Below are positions 1 through 19,108 of a stretch of DNA of 19,407 nucleotides, piece by piece. Both the position numbers and the translations under genes were made by a program. The first letter of the stretch is position 1, and the number at the start of each line of letters is the position of its first letter. The notes beneath the pieces were generated by a model. The model saw nothing but the letters and a program-made list of their open reading frames with translations. It was not told where the DNA came from and did no database searches. The stretch comes from a virus (Duplodnaviria > Heunggongvirae > Uroviricota > Caudoviricetes), in IMG/VR virus record IMGVR_UViG_2619619132_000004. One strand, 5' to 3'.

Positions 1-199
1 CACCGTATACCTTGTGATTTTCATCGTATACGCGCTGTATCTCTTTCTTCAGCCAGTCATCGCGCTGCGCACGGGCACTGCGTTTATCCGGATGATGTCG
101 CTGTTGCTGACAGTGGTAATACGTTGACGGGGCAATATGTAGTTCACTGCATACCGGTCCGACCCCGTACAGCTTACGCAGCTTATCCAGCAGTGGCAT
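1..199 (-). CDS. IS3-family transposase OrfB, N-terminal fragment (continues beyond window)
   Basis: Minus-strand translation from ATG at 199: [66 protein letters not shown], typical IS3-family OrfB N-terminus. Start overlaps the orfA stop. Confidence 0.8.
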   Translation of the reverse strand, partial: MPLLDKLRKLYGVGPVCSELHIAPSTYYHCQQQRHHPDKRSARAQRDDWLKKEIQRVYDENHKVYG

Positions 200-525
200 C
201 ACTTTTTCCAGAGGCGGTCGAACTCCGCCTTCGCAAAATAAGCGGAAGCCTGGCGAAGGATATCGTTACTGCGGCGCAGTTCACGATTTTCACGTTCCAG
301 CTCTTTCAGACGCTGACGTTCAGCGGTGGTGAGCCCTCCATCACCGCCCCCGGTATCCCGCTCATGCTGGCGAACCCAGACACGCAGAGTCTCCGGCGTA
401 CAGCCAATCTTTGGAGCAATGGAACAAATTGTCGCCCATTGTGAGTCATATTCGCTCTGACTTTCCAGAACCATACGGACTGCCCGTTGACGGACTTCGG
501 GGGAAAAACGAGTATTTTTAGTCAT
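199..525 (-). CDS. IS3-family transposase OrfA (HTH plus leucine-zipper, 108 aa)
   Basis: ORF track protein [19 protein letters not shown]...[39 protein letters not shown], recognised as IS629/IS3-family OrfA. Confidence 0.85.
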
Positions 526-10844: not shown

Positions 10845-10984
10845 ATTCATTACGATATGGGAATTCCCATATCGGGTAAAAACGGTTTGCGGTAAAGCGA
10901 GAGTTAAGCAGAATTGCTGCGGGTGCTTGAGGCTGTCTGCCTCGGGCATGCCACCGTAAGGCAGACAGAGAAAAACCCCAGTTA

Positions 10985-11050
10985 ACATTACGCGTCCTGC
11001 AAGACGCCTAACATTAATCTGAGGCCAATTTCATGCTAGACACATGTAGG
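10985..11050 (-). ncRNA. Sok-like antisense RNA (type I antitoxin); approximate position
   Basis: Placed by analogy with hok/sok loci, antisense to the mok start and hok leader. Boundaries not determined from sequence. Confidence 0.35.
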
Positions 11051-11245
11051 TTAGCCTCTTACGCGCCGAAAGGCAAGGAGAAGCAGGCTATGAAGCAGCA
11101 AAAGGCGATGTTAGTCGCCCTGATCGTCATCTGTATTACCGTCGTAGTGACGGCACTGGTAACGAGGAAAGACCTCTGCGAGGTACGAATCCGAACCGGT
11201 CAGACGGAGGTTGCTGTCTTCACAGCTTACAAACCTGAGGAGTAA
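11033..11245 (+). CDS. mok-like overlapping reading frame (in frame with and containing hok)
   Basis: ORF track 11033..11245 begins upstream of hok in the same frame, as in hok/sok loci. Confidence 0.5.
   Translation: MLDTCRLASYAPKGKEKQAMKQQKAMLVALIVICITVVVTALVTRKDLCEVRIRTGQTEVAVFTAYKPEE
11090..11245 (+). CDS. hok: Hok/Gef-family type I toxin (51 aa)
   Basis: MKQQKAMLVALIVICITVVVTALVTRKDLCEVRIRTGQTEVAVFTAYKPEE matches Hok (transmembrane helix then RKxLCEVRIxxGxTEVAAF). Leader 10921..10968 resembles the R1 hok mRNA 5' end; the 5' element UGCGGGUG (10918..10925) is complementary to the 3' element CACCCGCA (11303..11310). Confidence 0.85.
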   Translation: MKQQKAMLVALIVICITVVVTALVTRKDLCEVRIRTGQTEVAVFTAYKPEE

Positions 11246-11313: not shown

Positions 11314-11336
11314 AACCCGCTTCGGCGGGTTTTTTC
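11314..11336 (+). terminator. Rho-independent terminator of the hok mRNA (CCCGC-UUCG-GCGGG then U7)
   Basis: GC stem with UUCG tetraloop and T-run. Confidence 0.8.
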
Positions 11337-11454
11337 ACGTACTGTGGTTGTGAATACGATTGGTATTAGGCTATGCTAACAACATTAGCCTGACTAATTT
11401 TGTATTGACTTGATTTTTGTTAAAGAACAGGACGGAGAAGTAAGGGTACACCCA

Positions 11455-11634
11455 ATGAGCTACGCACTAAAAAAACACCCGCGATTGACTATTCCCCCTC
11501 GCGATAAAAGCGTTGTGGCAGCTCCGCGCCCGGCTATCGATGAAAATTGCACTCATCGTGAGCAGGTGAAAAATGCTTTCGATTTCGGTTTTTCTCGTTA
11601 CGAGAAGGCAATGGAAGAACTTTCAAAAGTGTAA
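11455..11634 (+). CDS. Small protein upstream of the Doc-family toxin; putative cognate antitoxin (unclassified, 59 aa)
   Basis: ATG 11455; stop 18 bp before the toxin start; no similarity to Phd noticed. Confidence 0.45.
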   Translation: MSYALKKHPRLTIPPRDKSVVAAPRPAIDENCTHREQVKNAFDFGFSRYEKAMEELSKV

Positions 11635-11652
11635 TGATGGGTATTGTGCTCT

Positions 11653-12138
11653 ATGGCTGAGATTGTTGAAGGAGTGCACTACCTTTCGTTTGATGATCTT
11701 ACCGAAATTAATCGCCTTTTAATTGAGCTTCAAACACCAGATGAACCTGTTAGTGTGCTGAGTGTTGATAATTTAAGTTCTTCTCAGTCTCGTCCCAGCA
11801 TGGTTCGATGGTATGAACAGACTAATGACATGTTTGTACTGGCATCAGTATTGATTGAAAGTCTGATTCAGAATCATCCATTTGCTAATGCAAACAAACG
11901 AACAGCTATGATGGCTGGTTATGTCTTCTTGTTGTTGAATGGCTATGAGTTAACAGCACCAGGCGATGAAATCGTGGAAATGGCAGAGGGACTGGCCTGC
12001 AAAACCTATACTCGAGAAGATCTCGAGAACTGGTTGTGTTATTGGTCTCGTGCGTATGACAGCCGGGAATTATGTAAAACAGGCGCAACTATTGTTTTGT
12101 ATGAAACTATCAAGCTTAAAATAGAACAGCAAAACTAA
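11653..12138 (+). CDS. Fic/Doc-family protein with Doc-type motif HPFANANKR (putative toxin, 162 aa)
   Basis: Motif HxFx(D/N)(A/G)NKR present as HPFANANKRTAMMAG; followed by a terminator at 12156..12178. Confidence 0.7.
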   Translation: MAEIVEGVHYLSFDDLTEINRLLIELQTPDEPVSVLSVDNLSSSQSRPSMVRWYEQTNDMFVLASVLIESLIQNHPFANANKRTAMMAGYVFLLLNGYELTAPGDEIVEMAEGLACKTYTREDLENWLCYWSRAYDSRELCKTGATIVLYETIKLKIEQQN

Positions 12139-12155
12139 AGGTGCTTCTAATGAAA

Positions 12156-12178
12156 ATCCGCTTCGGCGGGTTTTGTTG
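12156..12178 (+). terminator. Rho-independent terminator (CCGC-UUCG-GCGG then UUUUGUUG)
   Basis: Same stem-loop core as the hok terminator; lies between the convergent Doc-like gene and the HTH antitoxin gene. Confidence 0.65.
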
Positions 12179-12188
12179 TATTGGAGTA

Positions 12189-12506
12189 TCATGATATTAC
12201 TTGGATCCCGTTTTTCTCTACGACTGAAAGAAGGCGAAGAGCGGCACCTCCCGGCCGTTTTACACCACGTTCCCAGTCTGATATCAGGTTTTTACTGACG
12301 TTGAGGTATCTGGCAAAAACAGGTTGAGACAGATGCTCTCGTTCGCGCAGTGCACGGATCCTTTCCGGAGACATTACCGGCGCTGGCTGGAGACAAGTTT
12401 CATCGAATTCTCGCATAGTCTGTTTCGTTACTGCGCCGATATCATGAAGCGATTCCATCATTTCATGTACGGATGCAAGCGCATCACTGCGGTAATTTTT
12501 ACTCAT
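12189..12506 (-). CDS. HTH (XRE-like) antitoxin of a HigB-2/HigA-2-type toxin-antitoxin pair (105 aa)
   Basis: GGAGG RBS before ATG 12506; C-terminal HTH segment; immediately downstream of the toxin gene on the same strand. Confidence 0.65.
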   Translation of the reverse strand: MSKNYRSDALASVHEMMESLHDIGAVTKQTMREFDETCLQPAPVMSPERIRALREREHLSQPVFARYLNVSKNLISDWERGVKRPGGAALRLLSVVEKNGIQVIS

Positions 12507-12560
12507 TGGGTACCTCCGTAAACTGACCCTGTAGAATCAGTTGTGCCAGTTGTTCATCTG

Positions 12561-12869
12561 TTAGATTGAGTACGTGAGGAGCCCCTTCCGAAATGCACTT
12601 TCCTCAGTAGCGGTTATATTTTCACGTTCATTTTTTGCGTATGCATATACGAAAAAGGCCCTTGTGCCGACGCGATAGAAAATGATTGTGCGATAACCGC
12701 CAGATTTGCCGCCACCGACTCGTGGCAGACGTTGCTTGATAACGCCGTTACCCAGGTTTGCTGAGATAAGCCCGTTATCAGCCTGTTTAACAATTTCGCG
12801 CAGTGACTGGTCGGATATTTTGTTTTTGTGTGCAAATCGCTCAAACCAGGCGTTTTTAAAAATGCGCAT
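12561..12869 (-). CDS. RelE/HigB-2-like toxin (102 aa)
   Basis: Motifs GGGKSGGYRTIIFYR and FVYAYAKNERENI resemble Vibrio HigB-2 (GKRGGSRIIYYF...YGKNEMSDL); toxin-first operon order. Confidence 0.65.
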   Translation of the reverse strand: MRIFKNAWFERFAHKNKISDQSLREIVKQADNGLISANLGNGVIKQRLPRVGGGKSGGYRTIIFYRVGTRAFFVYAYAKNERENITATEESAFRKGLLTYSI

Positions 12870-12937: not shown

Positions 12938-12967
12938 TTGACAACGTCGCGTATCCGGGATTATATT
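12938..12967 (+). promoter_or_regulatory. Sigma70-like promoter: TTGACA (12938..12943), 17-18 bp spacer, TTATAT/TATATT
   Basis: Consensus -35 hexamer and AT-rich -10 at canonical spacing. Confidence 0.5.
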
Positions 12968-12973
12968 CATCGC

Positions 12974-13056
12974 ACGCCAGCAAAATCTGGCGTCGGGATT
13001 AGGAACCCCGGATAGAAACCGCGACAGAGACACGCCGCGAGCGTGTTTTTTATTGT
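12974..13056 (+). ncRNA. Candidate small RNA or attenuated leader (about 80 nt) ending at an intrinsic terminator
   Basis: No ORF; 5' hairpin CGCCAG-CAAAAT-CTGGCG (12973..12990); terminator ACACGC-CGCGA-GCGTGT then U6 (13030..13051); downstream of the promoter at 12938. Confidence 0.4.
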
Positions 13057-13214
13057 CGTATGCACACGCACATCTGAATTATGGTGGGGCGTATAGGGGA
13101 GCTGAAAAGCTCGCCGGTTGGTTTCCCGGTAGTTCCTAACCCTGTACGTCTCGCCACCCGATGATTAGGAACCTGACGGTGGTGATAGTTTAGAAACCAC
13201 TCGAGGGCGTCATT

Positions 13215-13886
13215 ATGACAACTCAAGTTTCTGTTGAAACACTCTCCACGATTACTTACAAGCAGATCCCCGTTATCACTACCGAACTTTTGGCGCACCT
13301 TTACGGCACAGAAGCTATTCGTATTCGCCAGAATCACCACGAAAACAAAGGTCGTTTCATTGAGGAAAAACACTTCTTCAAACTTGAAGGTGAAACTTTA
13401 CGTGAGTTCAAGCACAGAGTAGCTTTTAACTACTCTGTGAAAATTGCCCGTAACGTTCGCTCCCTCATCCTATGGACAGAACGCGGCGCAGCCCGTCACG
13501 CAAAAATGCTCGAAACTGATCAGGCGTGGGAGGTATTCGAAAAACTGGAAGACTGCTATTTCAGCCAGGGAAAAACAGCACCAACCGAACAGCAGCCGCA
13601 GATTCAGCCACAATTCACAGCCGAAGAAATCATCCTCCTTTGCTACATGCAGCTCTGGATGGAAAAAGCCCAGGACCTCAGCAAACACCTGTATCCCATT
13701 ATGAAAGAGCTGAACTCCTCATACACGAACAAGCTGTATGACATTGCGTTTGAGACCATCTACATGGTGACGAAGAACAGAGACGCGCTACTAAGGGAGG
13801 TAACACGTCTCGACATGTCAAGTTCCATTATCCAGCGGGCCATGCCAATGCTGAAAAGCCTGCGGGCAAGACAATTTGAATTCTGA
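13215..13886 (+). CDS. ORF6N-domain antirepressor-like protein (223 aa)
   Basis: GAGGG RBS; N-terminal region resembles ORF6N/Ant-type antirepressors of lambdoid prophages; own terminator downstream. Confidence 0.6.
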   Translation: MTTQVSVETLSTITYKQIPVITTELLAHLYGTEAIRIRQNHHENKGRFIEEKHFFKLEGETLREFKHRVAFNYSVKIARNVRSLILWTERGAARHAKMLETDQAWEVFEKLEDCYFSQGKTAPTEQQPQIQPQFTAEEIILLCYMQLWMEKAQDLSKHLYPIMKELNSSYTNKLYDIAFETIYMVTKNRDALLREVTRLDMSSSIIQRAMPMLKSLRARQFEF

Positions 13887-16851: not shown

Positions 16852-17114
16852 TATCCGTTCAACGGGAATGTTACATACCTCACAATTAAGTCAGTTGAAT
16901 GTTGTCTGCCCGGATGAGAATTTGTTAGAAAAAACTGCATGGTGAATCCCCCTGAGCGGAGGGGCGACTGGTGACGGTATAATCTCTGATTATCAAAACG
17001 AGAATGACGCGGGTTTAGTGGCACCGGGCTGAACTCACCGGGAGGCACCCGGCACCATGCAATGGCACATAGCGCCACTCTCCAGCCCCTCTCCGGAGGG
17101 GCTTTCTTATGGAC

Positions 17115-17335: not shown

Positions 17336-19108
17336 ATGGCATTTAAACACTATGATGTTGTCAGGGCGGCGTCGCCGTCAGACCTTGCGAAACGAATAAC
17401 TCAAAAACTGAAGGAAGGGGGGCAGCCTTATGGTAGTGCGCTGATTTCGACAGCTGGTTATGGTGCGGAGTTCATCCAGCCAGTTGTGAGTGAGGGGAGC
17501 ATCTCATCACCAGAGGAGCCAGGCAACCGTCCGACGACCTCAGCGCCTTCTGTTGCGCCAGAATATTACTATGTGATCGCGCTTGCTGGTCAGTCCAATG
17601 GTATGTCATACGGTGAGGGACTGCCATTACCGGATACATTCGACAGCCCTGATCCACGTATTAAACAGTTAGCGCGTCGCAGTACGGTGACACCGGGCGG
17701 TGCAGCATGCAAATATAACGACATCATTCCGGCGGACCATTGTCTGCATGATGTGCAGGACATGAGCCGTCTTAACCATCCGAAAGCGGACCTGTCAAAG
17801 GGGCAGTACGGAACCGTGGGGCAGGGGCTGCATATCGCCAAAAAACTGCTGCCGTTTATACCGGCGAATGCGGGCATTCTGCTGGTTCCGTGCTGTCGTG
17901 GTGGTTCAGCGTTCACCACCGGAGCTGATGGCACATACAGTGACGCGAGTGGCGCCTCGGAGAATTCAACCCGCTGGGGTGTGGACAAGCCGCTGTATAA
18001 GGACCTTATCGGTCGAACAAAAGCGGCACTGGAGAAGAACCCGAAAAATGTGCTGTTTGCCGTGGTGTGGATGCAGGGGGAATTTGATTTTGGCGGTACG
18101 CCGGCAAATCATGCCGCACAGTTTGGTGCGCTGGTTGATAAATTCCGTGCAGACCTGGCGGATATGGCAGGCCAGTGCGTCGGTGGCTCTGCTGGCGGTG
18201 TTCCCTGGATATGCGGGGACACGACGTATTTCTGGAAGCAGAAGAACGAATCCACGTACCAGACGGTGTACGGCAGCTATAAAAATAAAACGGAAAAGAA
18301 TATCCATTTCGTACCGTTCATGACCGATGAGAACGGGGTGAATGTGCCGACGAACAAACCGGAAGAAGACCCGGACATTCCGGGTATCGGTTATTACGGT
18401 TCGAAATGGCGTGACAGCTCAGCCACCTGGACGTCACAGGACAGGGCGAGCCATTTCAGTTCATGGGCTCGCCGTGGGATTATTTCCGACCGTCTGGCAA
18501 CGGCGATTCTGAGCTGCGCGGGTAAGTCTTCTGCGTTTGTTAATGGTACTGCCGGGGTGGTTGTTCCAGACAGACCGGTTACCACCTCAGAGTCTGTAAT
18601 TTTTTACGATGCCAAAAAAGCTACAGACAATCAGCTGAAACCCTATGGCTGGGACGGTGTGTATGGCAGGCGCACACTGGTTGATGACAGCGGCAATAAA
18701 GCTCTGCGAATTGAGAAAAATAACAGCGCGAAATCCTGGTCAATGTACTGTGATATTGCTGCAGACAAGGCAAAACTTTTACTGGAAAAAGGCGGGGAAA
18801 TTGCTGTCCGGTTTAAAATCCCCGAAAACGTCAATCTTGAGACAACCAGAAACAAGTATGCCTTTGGTTTGTACTGGCGAATAGCGGAATGGCCGGGTGA
18901 GGGTGGTGAAGGCCATCTGAGTTCTTTCTTTGTCCAGACAGATAAAGCCAGTATTAATGTTGCATACCATCATACAGTTAATCAACAAAAAGAACTTGGC
19001 ACGTTTGGCGCATTCGACCATGACTGGCATACGCTTGCATTTAAATTTAAGGGCAGTAACAGCATTAATGAACCGCCCCGGGTTTCCTGGAGAGTGTTTT
19101 ATCTGTGA
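17336..19108 (+). CDS. NanS-p-like SGNH/SASA-family sialate O-acetylesterase, 3'-truncated by IS insertion
   Basis: GGGAGG RBS; GQSN motif (IALAGQSNGMSYGEG) typical of SASA/SGNH esterases; position downstream of Q as for nanS-p in Stx-type prophages. The last 13 codons and the stop lie inside the IS that begins at 19069. Confidence 0.65.
   Translation: MAFKHYDVVRAASPSDLAKRITQKLKEGGQPYGSALISTAGYGAEFIQPVVSEGSISSPEEPGNRPTTSAPSVAPEYYYVIALAGQSNGMSYGEGLPLPDTFDSPDPRIKQLARRSTVTPGGAACKYNDIIPADHCLHDVQDMSRLNHPKADLSKGQYGTVGQGLHIAKKLLPFIPANAGILLVPCCRGGSAFTTGADGTYSDASGASENSTRWGVDKPLYKDLIGRTKAALEKNPKNVLFAVVWMQGEFDFGGTPANHAAQFGALVDKFRADLADMAGQCVGGSAGGVPWICGDTTYFWKQKNESTYQTVYGSYKNKTEKNIHFVPFMTDENGVNVPTNKPEEDPDIPGIGYYGSKWRDSSATWTSQDRASHFSSWARRGIISDRLATAILSCAGKSSAFVNGTAGVVVPDRPVTTSESVIFYDAKKATDNQLKPYGWDGVYGRRTLVDDSGNKALRIEKNNSAKSWSMYCDIAADKAKLLLEKGGEIAVRFKIPENVNLETTRNKYAFGLYWRIAEWPGEGGEGHLSSFFVQTDKASINVAYHHTVNQQKELGTFGAFDHDWHTLAFKFKGSNSINEPPRVSWRVFYL

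Follow-up and report, generated by a model that had tools for sequence, protein, structure and literature searches.

A lambdoid Escherichia coli prophage carries a Doc-family toxin gene and a probable antitoxin gene whose product lacks a recognisable DNA-binding domain

Phd-Doc is the textbook case of antitoxin-mediated autoregulation (conditional cooperativity). The toxin, Doc, phosphorylates EF-Tu at Thr382 (the Arg-Thr382 site), while the antitoxin, Phd, dimerises and binds its operator through one domain, which is the basis of conditional cooperativity. PaaA2, of the PaaR2-PaaA2-ParE2 system in E. coli O157:H7 prophages, and VbhA, the antitoxin of the Fic protein VbhT, are largely disordered or helical proteins of about 60 residues that act as toxin-binding inhibitors only. 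In the Enterococcus faecalis pair EFPhd-EFDoc (PDB 9VZC), EFPhd residues 52-79 form a bent helix that is lodged in the concave face of the toxin (PMC13034048). Here we describe a Doc-family toxin gene, T, and the 59-codon gene just before it, A, in IMG/VR virus record IMGVR_UViG_2619619132_000004, a stretch of 19,407 nucleotides from a virus of the Caudoviricetes that we call, at its full length, the window. We consider it probable that A and T form an autonomous two-gene type II Doc toxin-antitoxin cassette, carried by the prophage as a moron, in which A is a minimal, "headless" cognate antitoxin. The features that matter most for this reading are the following, with gene accessions from the NCBI Prokaryotic Genome Annotation Pipeline (PGAP) and model confidence as the AlphaFold2 predicted local distance difference test (pLDDT).

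11455-11634, + strand: gene A, encoding a 59-residue putative antitoxin (PGAP WP_000119356, hypothetical; PHROG 2208), recognised by its ATG start, its substitution pattern (dN/dS) and its linkage to T
11491-11508, + strand: codons I13-P14-P15-R16-D17-K18 of A, with I13, P14 and R16 nearly invariant and the segment predicted to be extended
11554-11625, + strand: codons of the predicted alpha-helix of A, residues 34-57, the putative Doc-binding element (pLDDT 83-96 per 10-residue block)
11653-12138, + strand: gene T, encoding a 161-residue Doc-family toxin (PGAP WP_000818160), matched by PF02661, TIGR01550, phrog_577 and PDB Doc chains
11875-11901, + strand: codons of the catalytic motif of T, H75-P-F-A-N-A-N-K-R83, the Doc signature HxFx(D/N)(A/G)NKR
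12076-12135, + strand: codons of the variable C-terminal tail of T, residues ~142-161, with no P1 Doc counterpart and not conserved in relatives

An earlier note on this DNA had called the larger protein a Doc-family toxin, and that assignment stands. T is 161 residues long from the ATG that PGAP also chose, or 164 if read from an upstream TTG; the length given before was 162. Its product matches TIGR01550 at 122.2 bits (cut-off 38.65; E 1.3e-35) from residue 11 to 130, over the full length of the model, and the Pfam Fic family PF02661 at 44.5 bits (cut-off 24; E 2.9e-11). The PHROG match is phrog_577, a Doc-like toxin, and the matches among PDB sequences are to Doc proteins only (9vzc_A, E 1e-12; P1 Doc 3k33_A, E 1.2e-4). 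Matches of T to the defence models of PADLOC are marginal. The motif HPFANANKR exists as reported, but starts at residue 75 and not about 100 residues in. It is the kinase motif variant of Doc, HxFx(D/N)(A/G)NKR as defined in PMC13034048, not the Fic AMPylation motif HxFx(D/E)GNGRxxR. Among 46 relatives, drawn from Escherichia, Salmonella, Providencia, Serratia, Pantoea, Xenorhabdus and others, H75, F77, N79, N81, K82 and R83 do not vary. The N-terminal extension relative to P1 Doc that the note had described shrinks to an offset of about nine residues (residue 53 of T pairs with residue 44 of P1 Doc in the HMMER alignment) and is about four relative to the E. faecalis Doc (residue 6 with residue 2). 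The surplus over the 126 residues of P1 Doc, some 25 residues, lies instead at the C-terminus, where conservation among the relatives reaches to about residue 141 (WLCxWSRxYDxRxLC) and the tail beyond varies. Because the fold model of T is poor, its place is given by its sequence, and by that measure T is an ordinary member of the Doc toxin family.

The small reading frame quoted in the earlier note is found, letter for letter, at 11455-11634; a longer reading of the same frame, of 74 residues, opens at a TTG at 11410. Compared with copies at moderate divergence, A has 7-8 non-synonymous differences and 16 synonymous ones, a ratio of the two substitution rates (dN/dS) of 0.08-0.10; in more distant copies the synonymous sites are saturated while dN is still about 0.25. 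This substitution pattern marks A as a genuine protein-coding gene under purifying selection. An exhaustive profile search found 37 credible small representatives of the family at 50% identity, where a word-indexed search had given 17 clusters. Members are 38-95 residues in length, the matched core comprises about 45-60 residues, and the shared pattern is M..A.KK..RL.IP.RDK..VA.P.PA......H..QV.NAF...F.RY.KA...LSKV.

A and T are strictly linked. A search based on T found a homologue of A directly upstream, in the same orientation, at 80 of 80 viral-contig loci and 20 of 20 genome loci, and a search based on A found T downstream at 79 of 79. The T-retrieved loci span T identities from 53% to 100% and hosts that include Pseudomonas, Gilliamella, Entomomonas and Ignatzschineria; the genome scan returned no more than 20 loci because its search patterns were specific to the subfamily, and partners of Doc toxins at 40-53% identity to T fall outside the loci covered. 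In the window T follows A in the same frame and orientation after 18 nucleotides, and over the 80 viral loci the gap is 7-18 nucleotides. The identities of A and T diverge together (r = 0.95, not corrected for phylogeny), and the DNA upstream of A is not homologous between lineages. Because family scores are strong, selection is purifying and synteny is strict, the pair is more than a chance neighbourhood. At one locus, in Providencia sp. Me31A (L095, about 545-640), the Doc gene is apparently frameshifted near codon 15, with in-frame stops past YLSIDD, and the A gene before it is undamaged; either the toxin is decaying and its antitoxin was kept, or the assembly is in error.

By its sequence A belongs, as far as the libraries searched allow, to no named family. 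Pfam gave no match for the A of the window nor for any of 38 family members, NCBIfam and PADLOC gave none for the A of the window, and the sole library match is PHROG 2208, of "unknown function". When the family profile was run against PDB sequences, the matches were at chance level only (ribosomal S25, E 0.19; RES domain, E 1.1). AlphaFold2, supplied with the 38-sequence alignment, modelled A at a mean pLDDT of 83.5, with residues 1-33 extended and devoid of secondary structure and a single helix at 34-57. Neither Pfam nor the AlphaFold2 model gave a Phd/YefM (PF02604), AbrB/SpoVT (PF04014) or ribbon-helix-helix domain in A. Residues 1-33 are too short for an AbrB/SpoVT domain, and no beta structure is modelled there. 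By its predicted architecture A lies outside both the Phd/YefM and the AbrB-type families. The extended part contains I13, P14 and R16, which rank in the top six of the family for conservation, each at least 90% identical. Inhibition of the VbhA type (class I Fic antitoxin) was considered for A and rejected, since the motif (S/T)xxxE(G/N) is absent from the A of the window and from 36 of the 38 family members, and lies at non-homologous positions in the other two.

It is the C-terminal helix that links A to described antitoxins. The nearest outgroup toxins to T are the Docs of Enterococcus plasmids (38% identity) and of Leptospira, both of which are preceded by AbrB/MazE/SpoVT antitoxins. The tails of these AbrB-type proteins end in ...SEYDAAFKELVEK, ...TEYDTTFRELVDK and ...KKYRNALRELAK; A ends in ...SRYEKAMEELSKV. 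When the A family was compared by hhalign with 20 diverse AbrB-type Doc antitoxins, residues 33-57 of A aligned with tail residues 54-78 at E 1.7e-4 and a score of 26.1. For 300 column-permuted targets the mean score was 9.5 (standard deviation 2.0, maximum 15.9), and the reversed target, which keeps both composition and helical periodicity, scored 9.3. EFPhd, chain B of 9VZC, falls in the same AbrB-type family (E 1.6e-16). Anchored on the E-L pair, L56, M53, Y49, F46 and F42 of A fall on the hot spots L70, L67, H63, M60 and F56 of Salmonella Phd, where F56 and L70 are the "gatekeeper" residues (PMC9207808); hydrophobic or aromatic residues thus occupy five of the six hot-spot positions, in a comparison of positions, anchored at the end, rather than of family profiles. 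All of the tails compared stop two or three residues past the E-L anchor. We conclude with moderate confidence that A carries, in its C-terminal helix, a Doc-neutralising element of the known kind, probably homologous to the AbrB-type tail. The suggestion in the earlier note that A might represent an undescribed antitoxin type therefore holds in part: A has no recognised DNA-binding head and matches only PHROG 2208, but its helix matches the tail of AbrB/MazE-type Doc antitoxins and keeps the register of Phd. The remote-homology search that the note had proposed for the 59-residue protein was likewise divided, returning no Phd or Pfam relative but matching the AbrB-type tail.

Taken together, we propose the following scheme. 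T would be a Doc-type, Fic-fold kinase that, as its family membership implies, phosphorylates EF-Tu and stops translation. A would be made just upstream, with its translation probably coupled to that of T across the 18-nucleotide gap. As Phd and the AbrB-type EFPhd do with their C-terminal helices in solved complexes, A would place helix 34-57 in the concave groove of T, and we infer that in neutralisation A works as the Phd and AbrB-type antitoxins do. The proline-rich, extended residues 1-33, with the conserved IPxRD, would stand in place of a DNA-binding and dimerisation head. Additional contacts with T are the role that we prefer for them; alternatively they may serve as a degradation signal, and a DNA-contacting arm in a 2:2 complex is another possible role.

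Several results weigh against this scheme. The AlphaFold2 model of T, built with 46 close relatives, is all-helical and of low confidence (pLDDT 53.7), and in a Foldseek search with this model the top three matches were P1 Doc structures at E 0.15-0.79 and template modelling (TM) scores of 0.19-0.32, which are not significant. The match between A and the AbrB-type tail spans 25 columns and has an hhalign probability of only 49.5%, similarity between short amphipathic helices can arise by convergence, and the sixth hot spot of Phd, I59, corresponds to G45 in A. Against P1 Phd, used as a single sequence, the A family gave an hhalign probability of 1.4%, that is, no relationship; the earlier note was right that the partner is not Phd/YefM-like, and Pfam matched 0 of 38 members. 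We found no publication on the A-T pair. A has no DNA-binding fold, which leaves the usual autoregulation of type II modules unexplained, and upstream of A there is no convincing promoter and no conserved operator; a promoter scan of this region returned no sigma-70-like site, and none at a TTGACT hexamer. The hexamer and a dyad lie upstream of A as follows.

11366-11393, no strand assigned: imperfect dyad TTAGGCTA-12 nt-TAGCCTGA, complementary at 7 of 8 positions (core AGGCTA...TAGCCT, 11368-11391)
11405-11410, + strand: TTGACT hexamer, -35-like, without a -10 partner at 16-18 nucleotides

Both had been pointed out in the earlier note and are present at 11368-11391 and 11405-11410, but their reading as a promoter and operator finds no support from conservation or from the scan. 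We rejected it: there is no scan match, the dyad is degraded at loci that encode an identical A protein (L046 and L018), and the RNA fold of the dyad region is unremarkable (z = -1.5). We estimate roughly that chance alone yields a 6+6 inverted repeat with an 8-16-nucleotide loop about once in five 100-nucleotide stretches.

The dyad does bear on a different account of A, namely that, small as it is, it also regulates its own transcription: two of its N-terminal segments, paired through A-A contacts or within a T dimer, would make a beta-ribbon or arm that binds a palindromic operator in the cassette promoter, and the system would operate as a classical autoregulated type II module does. EFPhd drives dimerisation of its Doc (PMC13034048), and in other lineages palindromes are found at promoter-like hexamers upstream of A, as in Providencia (TTGACT-TAATGTAgCTTAACTTACATTA-TAAT) and in Yersinia and Serratia (TTGATT...TATAGCT/AGCTATA...TACACT), as well as in the window itself at 11366-11393. 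Set against this, A has no predicted DNA-binding fold and no Pfam match. Lineages with closely similar A N-termini have different palindromes, the dyad of the window is found elsewhere in degraded form beside an identical A, and the regions upstream of A are non-homologous across lineages. We find this account unlikely.

The palindromes deserve a description of their own. They lie 60-115 nucleotides upstream of the A start and differ by lineage, occurring in Providencia (L053, L083, L084 and L087), Yersinia (L086), Serratia (L082) and two further loci (L080 and L092). They are perfect or near-perfect and stand between or over TTGAnn and TACACT/TATAAT-like hexamers, with TAATGTAGCTTAACTTACATTA, TATAGCT..AGCTATA and TTACCTTtAAGGTAA as examples. 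Two Providencia lineages have arms with compensating differences. These sequences hint at lineage-specific candidate operators. A separate conserved element, GCACTGCC(A/T)A(A/C)GTG(C/T)A, forms a short hairpin just before the Shine-Dalgarno sequence of A, about 10-35 nucleotides upstream of its start, in L052, L054, L085, L089, L093 and other Salmonella-type loci; it is missing from the window version and may be a translational or RNA-stability element.

A second alternative keeps a true toxin-antitoxin pair and changes the mechanism. Here the IPxRD segment would plug the catalytic cleft as a pseudosubstrate, with the helix serving only as an anchor or having arisen by convergence. I13, P14 and R16 are in the top six conserved positions of A, so that this segment is conserved at least as well as the helix, and residues 11-20 are modelled as extended at pLDDT 86, as would be expected for a groove-binding peptide. 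Position 17 is mostly Asp, with some Thr, Ser, Asn and Glu, a loose echo of the Arg-Thr382 site of EF-Tu; the likeness to that site is R-[D/T] and no more, and Lys and Gly occur at the position as well. The helix of EFPhd by itself does not cover the catalytic motif in the complex with EFDoc (PMC13034048), yet the Phd 52-73 peptide suffices to inhibit Salmonella Doc (PMC9207808), which makes a helix-only mechanism adequate. We regard the pseudosubstrate mechanism as quite unlikely. The same low standing applies to its fuller form, in which neutralisation would combine the groove helix with an IPxRD plug of the catalytic or EF-Tu-binding cleft and A would bind no DNA whatever. If such a two-element headless antitoxin were real, regulation of the module would be unlike the conditional cooperativity of Phd-Doc and might, for instance, depend on nothing more than phage transcription and turnover of the antitoxin.

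That A and T are no toxin-antitoxin pair at all, T modifying a phage or host target without growth arrest and A being an adaptor, a chaperone or an unrelated small phage protein, we find very improbable: Fic-fold enzymes cover a range of activities, phage accessory genes surround the module and the toxicity of T is a prediction, but the motif of T is that of the Doc-specific kinase and not of Fic AMPylation, the gene order, size, spacing and strict linkage follow the pattern of type II modules, and the tail of A resembles solved Doc-neutralising helices.

The probable two-gene Doc cassette with a headless antitoxin has a well-defined place in its prophage. The window is a lambdoid E. coli prophage, and the annotated record places the cassette in the nin region, with the replication genes on one side and ninB on the other. 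The order there is hok, the 59-residue hypothetical protein, a "death-on-curing family toxin" and, on the opposite strand, a helix-turn-helix (HTH)/RelE-like pair. The segment 11250-12200 matches the chromosome of strain TOE17 at 100% identity and is found, at a coverage of at least 80%, in 120 of 5,426 complete E. coli genomes, O104:H4 outbreak strains among them. Its boundaries are as follows.

11314-11333, + strand: upstream boundary of the cassette, the intrinsic-terminator hairpin of hok (AACCCGCTTCGGCGGGTTTT) with copy 1 of a direct repeat, 19 of 20 positions identical to 12155-12174
12155-12174, + strand: downstream boundary of the cassette, the intrinsic terminator after T with copy 2 of the 20-nucleotide direct repeat, as judged by the repeat match and a terminator-like site at 12153-12174

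The two terminator hairpins, with 19 of 20 bases shared (AAyCCGCTTCGGCGGGTTTT), frame the Doc cassette exactly. Among lambdoid phages with the hok terminator in a phage collection, the match to the window stops at about 11334, and in the two cassette-less phages that we examined rem and ydfU follow hok instead. Because terminator repeats bracket the cassette and other genes follow hok in related phages, the cassette behaves as a moron, presumably with a promoter of its own. The hairpin copies may be the recombination joints for moron exchange.

Three toxin-antitoxin modules lie within 2 kb of this nin region: hok/sok, the Doc pair and the RelE-like pair. The hok/sok locus, of type I, adjoins the Doc cassette upstream at 10921-11245 (+), with the Rfam sok model matched at 110 bits at 10921-11095 and the Hok peptide by PF01848 at E 1.4e-23 (reading frame 11033-11245). 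The convergent pair spans 12189-12869 (-), with the RelE-like toxin at 12561-12869 (-; PF06296, E 7e-38) and an HTH_3/MqsA-like antitoxin gene downstream of it at 12189-12506 (-), a HigBA-like order. Across 100 loci and the window, hok is present in 44 of 101 sequences and the HTH/RelE pair in 11 of 101, and both are absent from every divergent locus; these neighbours are not part of the A-T unit. Because it stands beside the Doc cassette in just 11 of the 101 sequences, the HTH/RelE-like pair is a module independent of it. The HTH gene at 12189-12506 (-) had also been tried as a third, regulatory component of A-T, and was rejected on the same count, together with its pairing with the RelE-like gene.

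Farther along the window, isrK (12974-13051, 69 bits) comes after a strong promoter-like site (TTGACA-18-TATATT, 12938-12967, +) and is itself succeeded by a C4 antisense RNA (13077-13161, 66 bits) and then by an ORF6N/antirepressor-type gene (13215-13886, +). The stretch 12938-13886 is a P1/P7-like C4-ant immunity arrangement within a lambdoid prophage. The small RNA STnc100 is matched by Rfam at 165 bits at 16909-17114 (+), upstream of a long reading frame at 17336-19108. At the left end of the window, at 128-244 (-), Rfam gives a match of 116 bits to the ALIL pseudoknot, the programmed-frameshift element of IS3-family transposases, which suggests an insertion sequence there.

The A-T cassette is not a new kind of system. 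Its interest lies in A: an antitoxin with a neutralising tail only would be a natural probe of what the DNA-binding head contributes and of how a type II module is controlled without one. The hosts are clinically relevant, as with the O104:H4 outbreak strains of E. coli, and extend widely through the Enterobacterales and to some other Gammaproteobacteria. Because A is annotated as hypothetical throughout, naming it would correct many annotations. The 24-residue helix of A is also a possible peptide template for Doc inhibitors, a use to which Salmonella Phd has already been put (PMC9207808).

With Phd-Doc, as known from phage P1 and Salmonella Typhimurium, A-T shares the toxin family, its motif and carriage by temperate phages or prophages, although the sequence similarity of T to P1 Doc is weak (E 1.2e-4). 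In the end-anchored comparison the helices of A and of Salmonella Phd have the same hydrophobic register and end at the same distance from the C-terminus (PMC9207808). Unlike Phd, A has neither the Phd/YefM fold nor detectable Phd sequence homology, and the domain through which Phd dimerises and binds its operator is missing from it. PaaA2, VbhA and A are alike in being small and without a DNA-binding domain, and PaaA2 is, like A, encoded by prophages. They differ in that A-T has no conserved third regulator gene nearby, as the PaaR2 system does, that the A of the window lacks the (S/T)xxxE(G/N) of VbhA-type antitoxins, and that the toxin families or activities are not those of the PaaA2 and VbhA systems. 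A third comparison is with the "MazE-Doc" composites, in which an AbrB/MazE-type antitoxin is joined with a Doc (TasA-TasB of Bacillus thuringiensis pGI1; EFPhd-EFDoc, 9VZC) and whose toxins are the nearest outgroup of T. There, as in A-T, the antitoxin gene comes first and the toxin gene second, and the antitoxins end in a helix ...Y-x-x-A-hydrophobic-x-E-L-x-K that the A family matches. T differs from these toxins by its additional variable C-terminal tail, and A differs from these antitoxins in having, in place of the swapped-hairpin AbrB/SpoVT DNA-binding domain, a Pro-rich IPxRD segment of 33 residues. Compared with all of these, and with moderate confidence, what is known here is the kind of system, a type II Doc module, and its neutralising element; what would be new is an antitoxin that carries this element without a recognisable DNA-binding or dimerisation domain.

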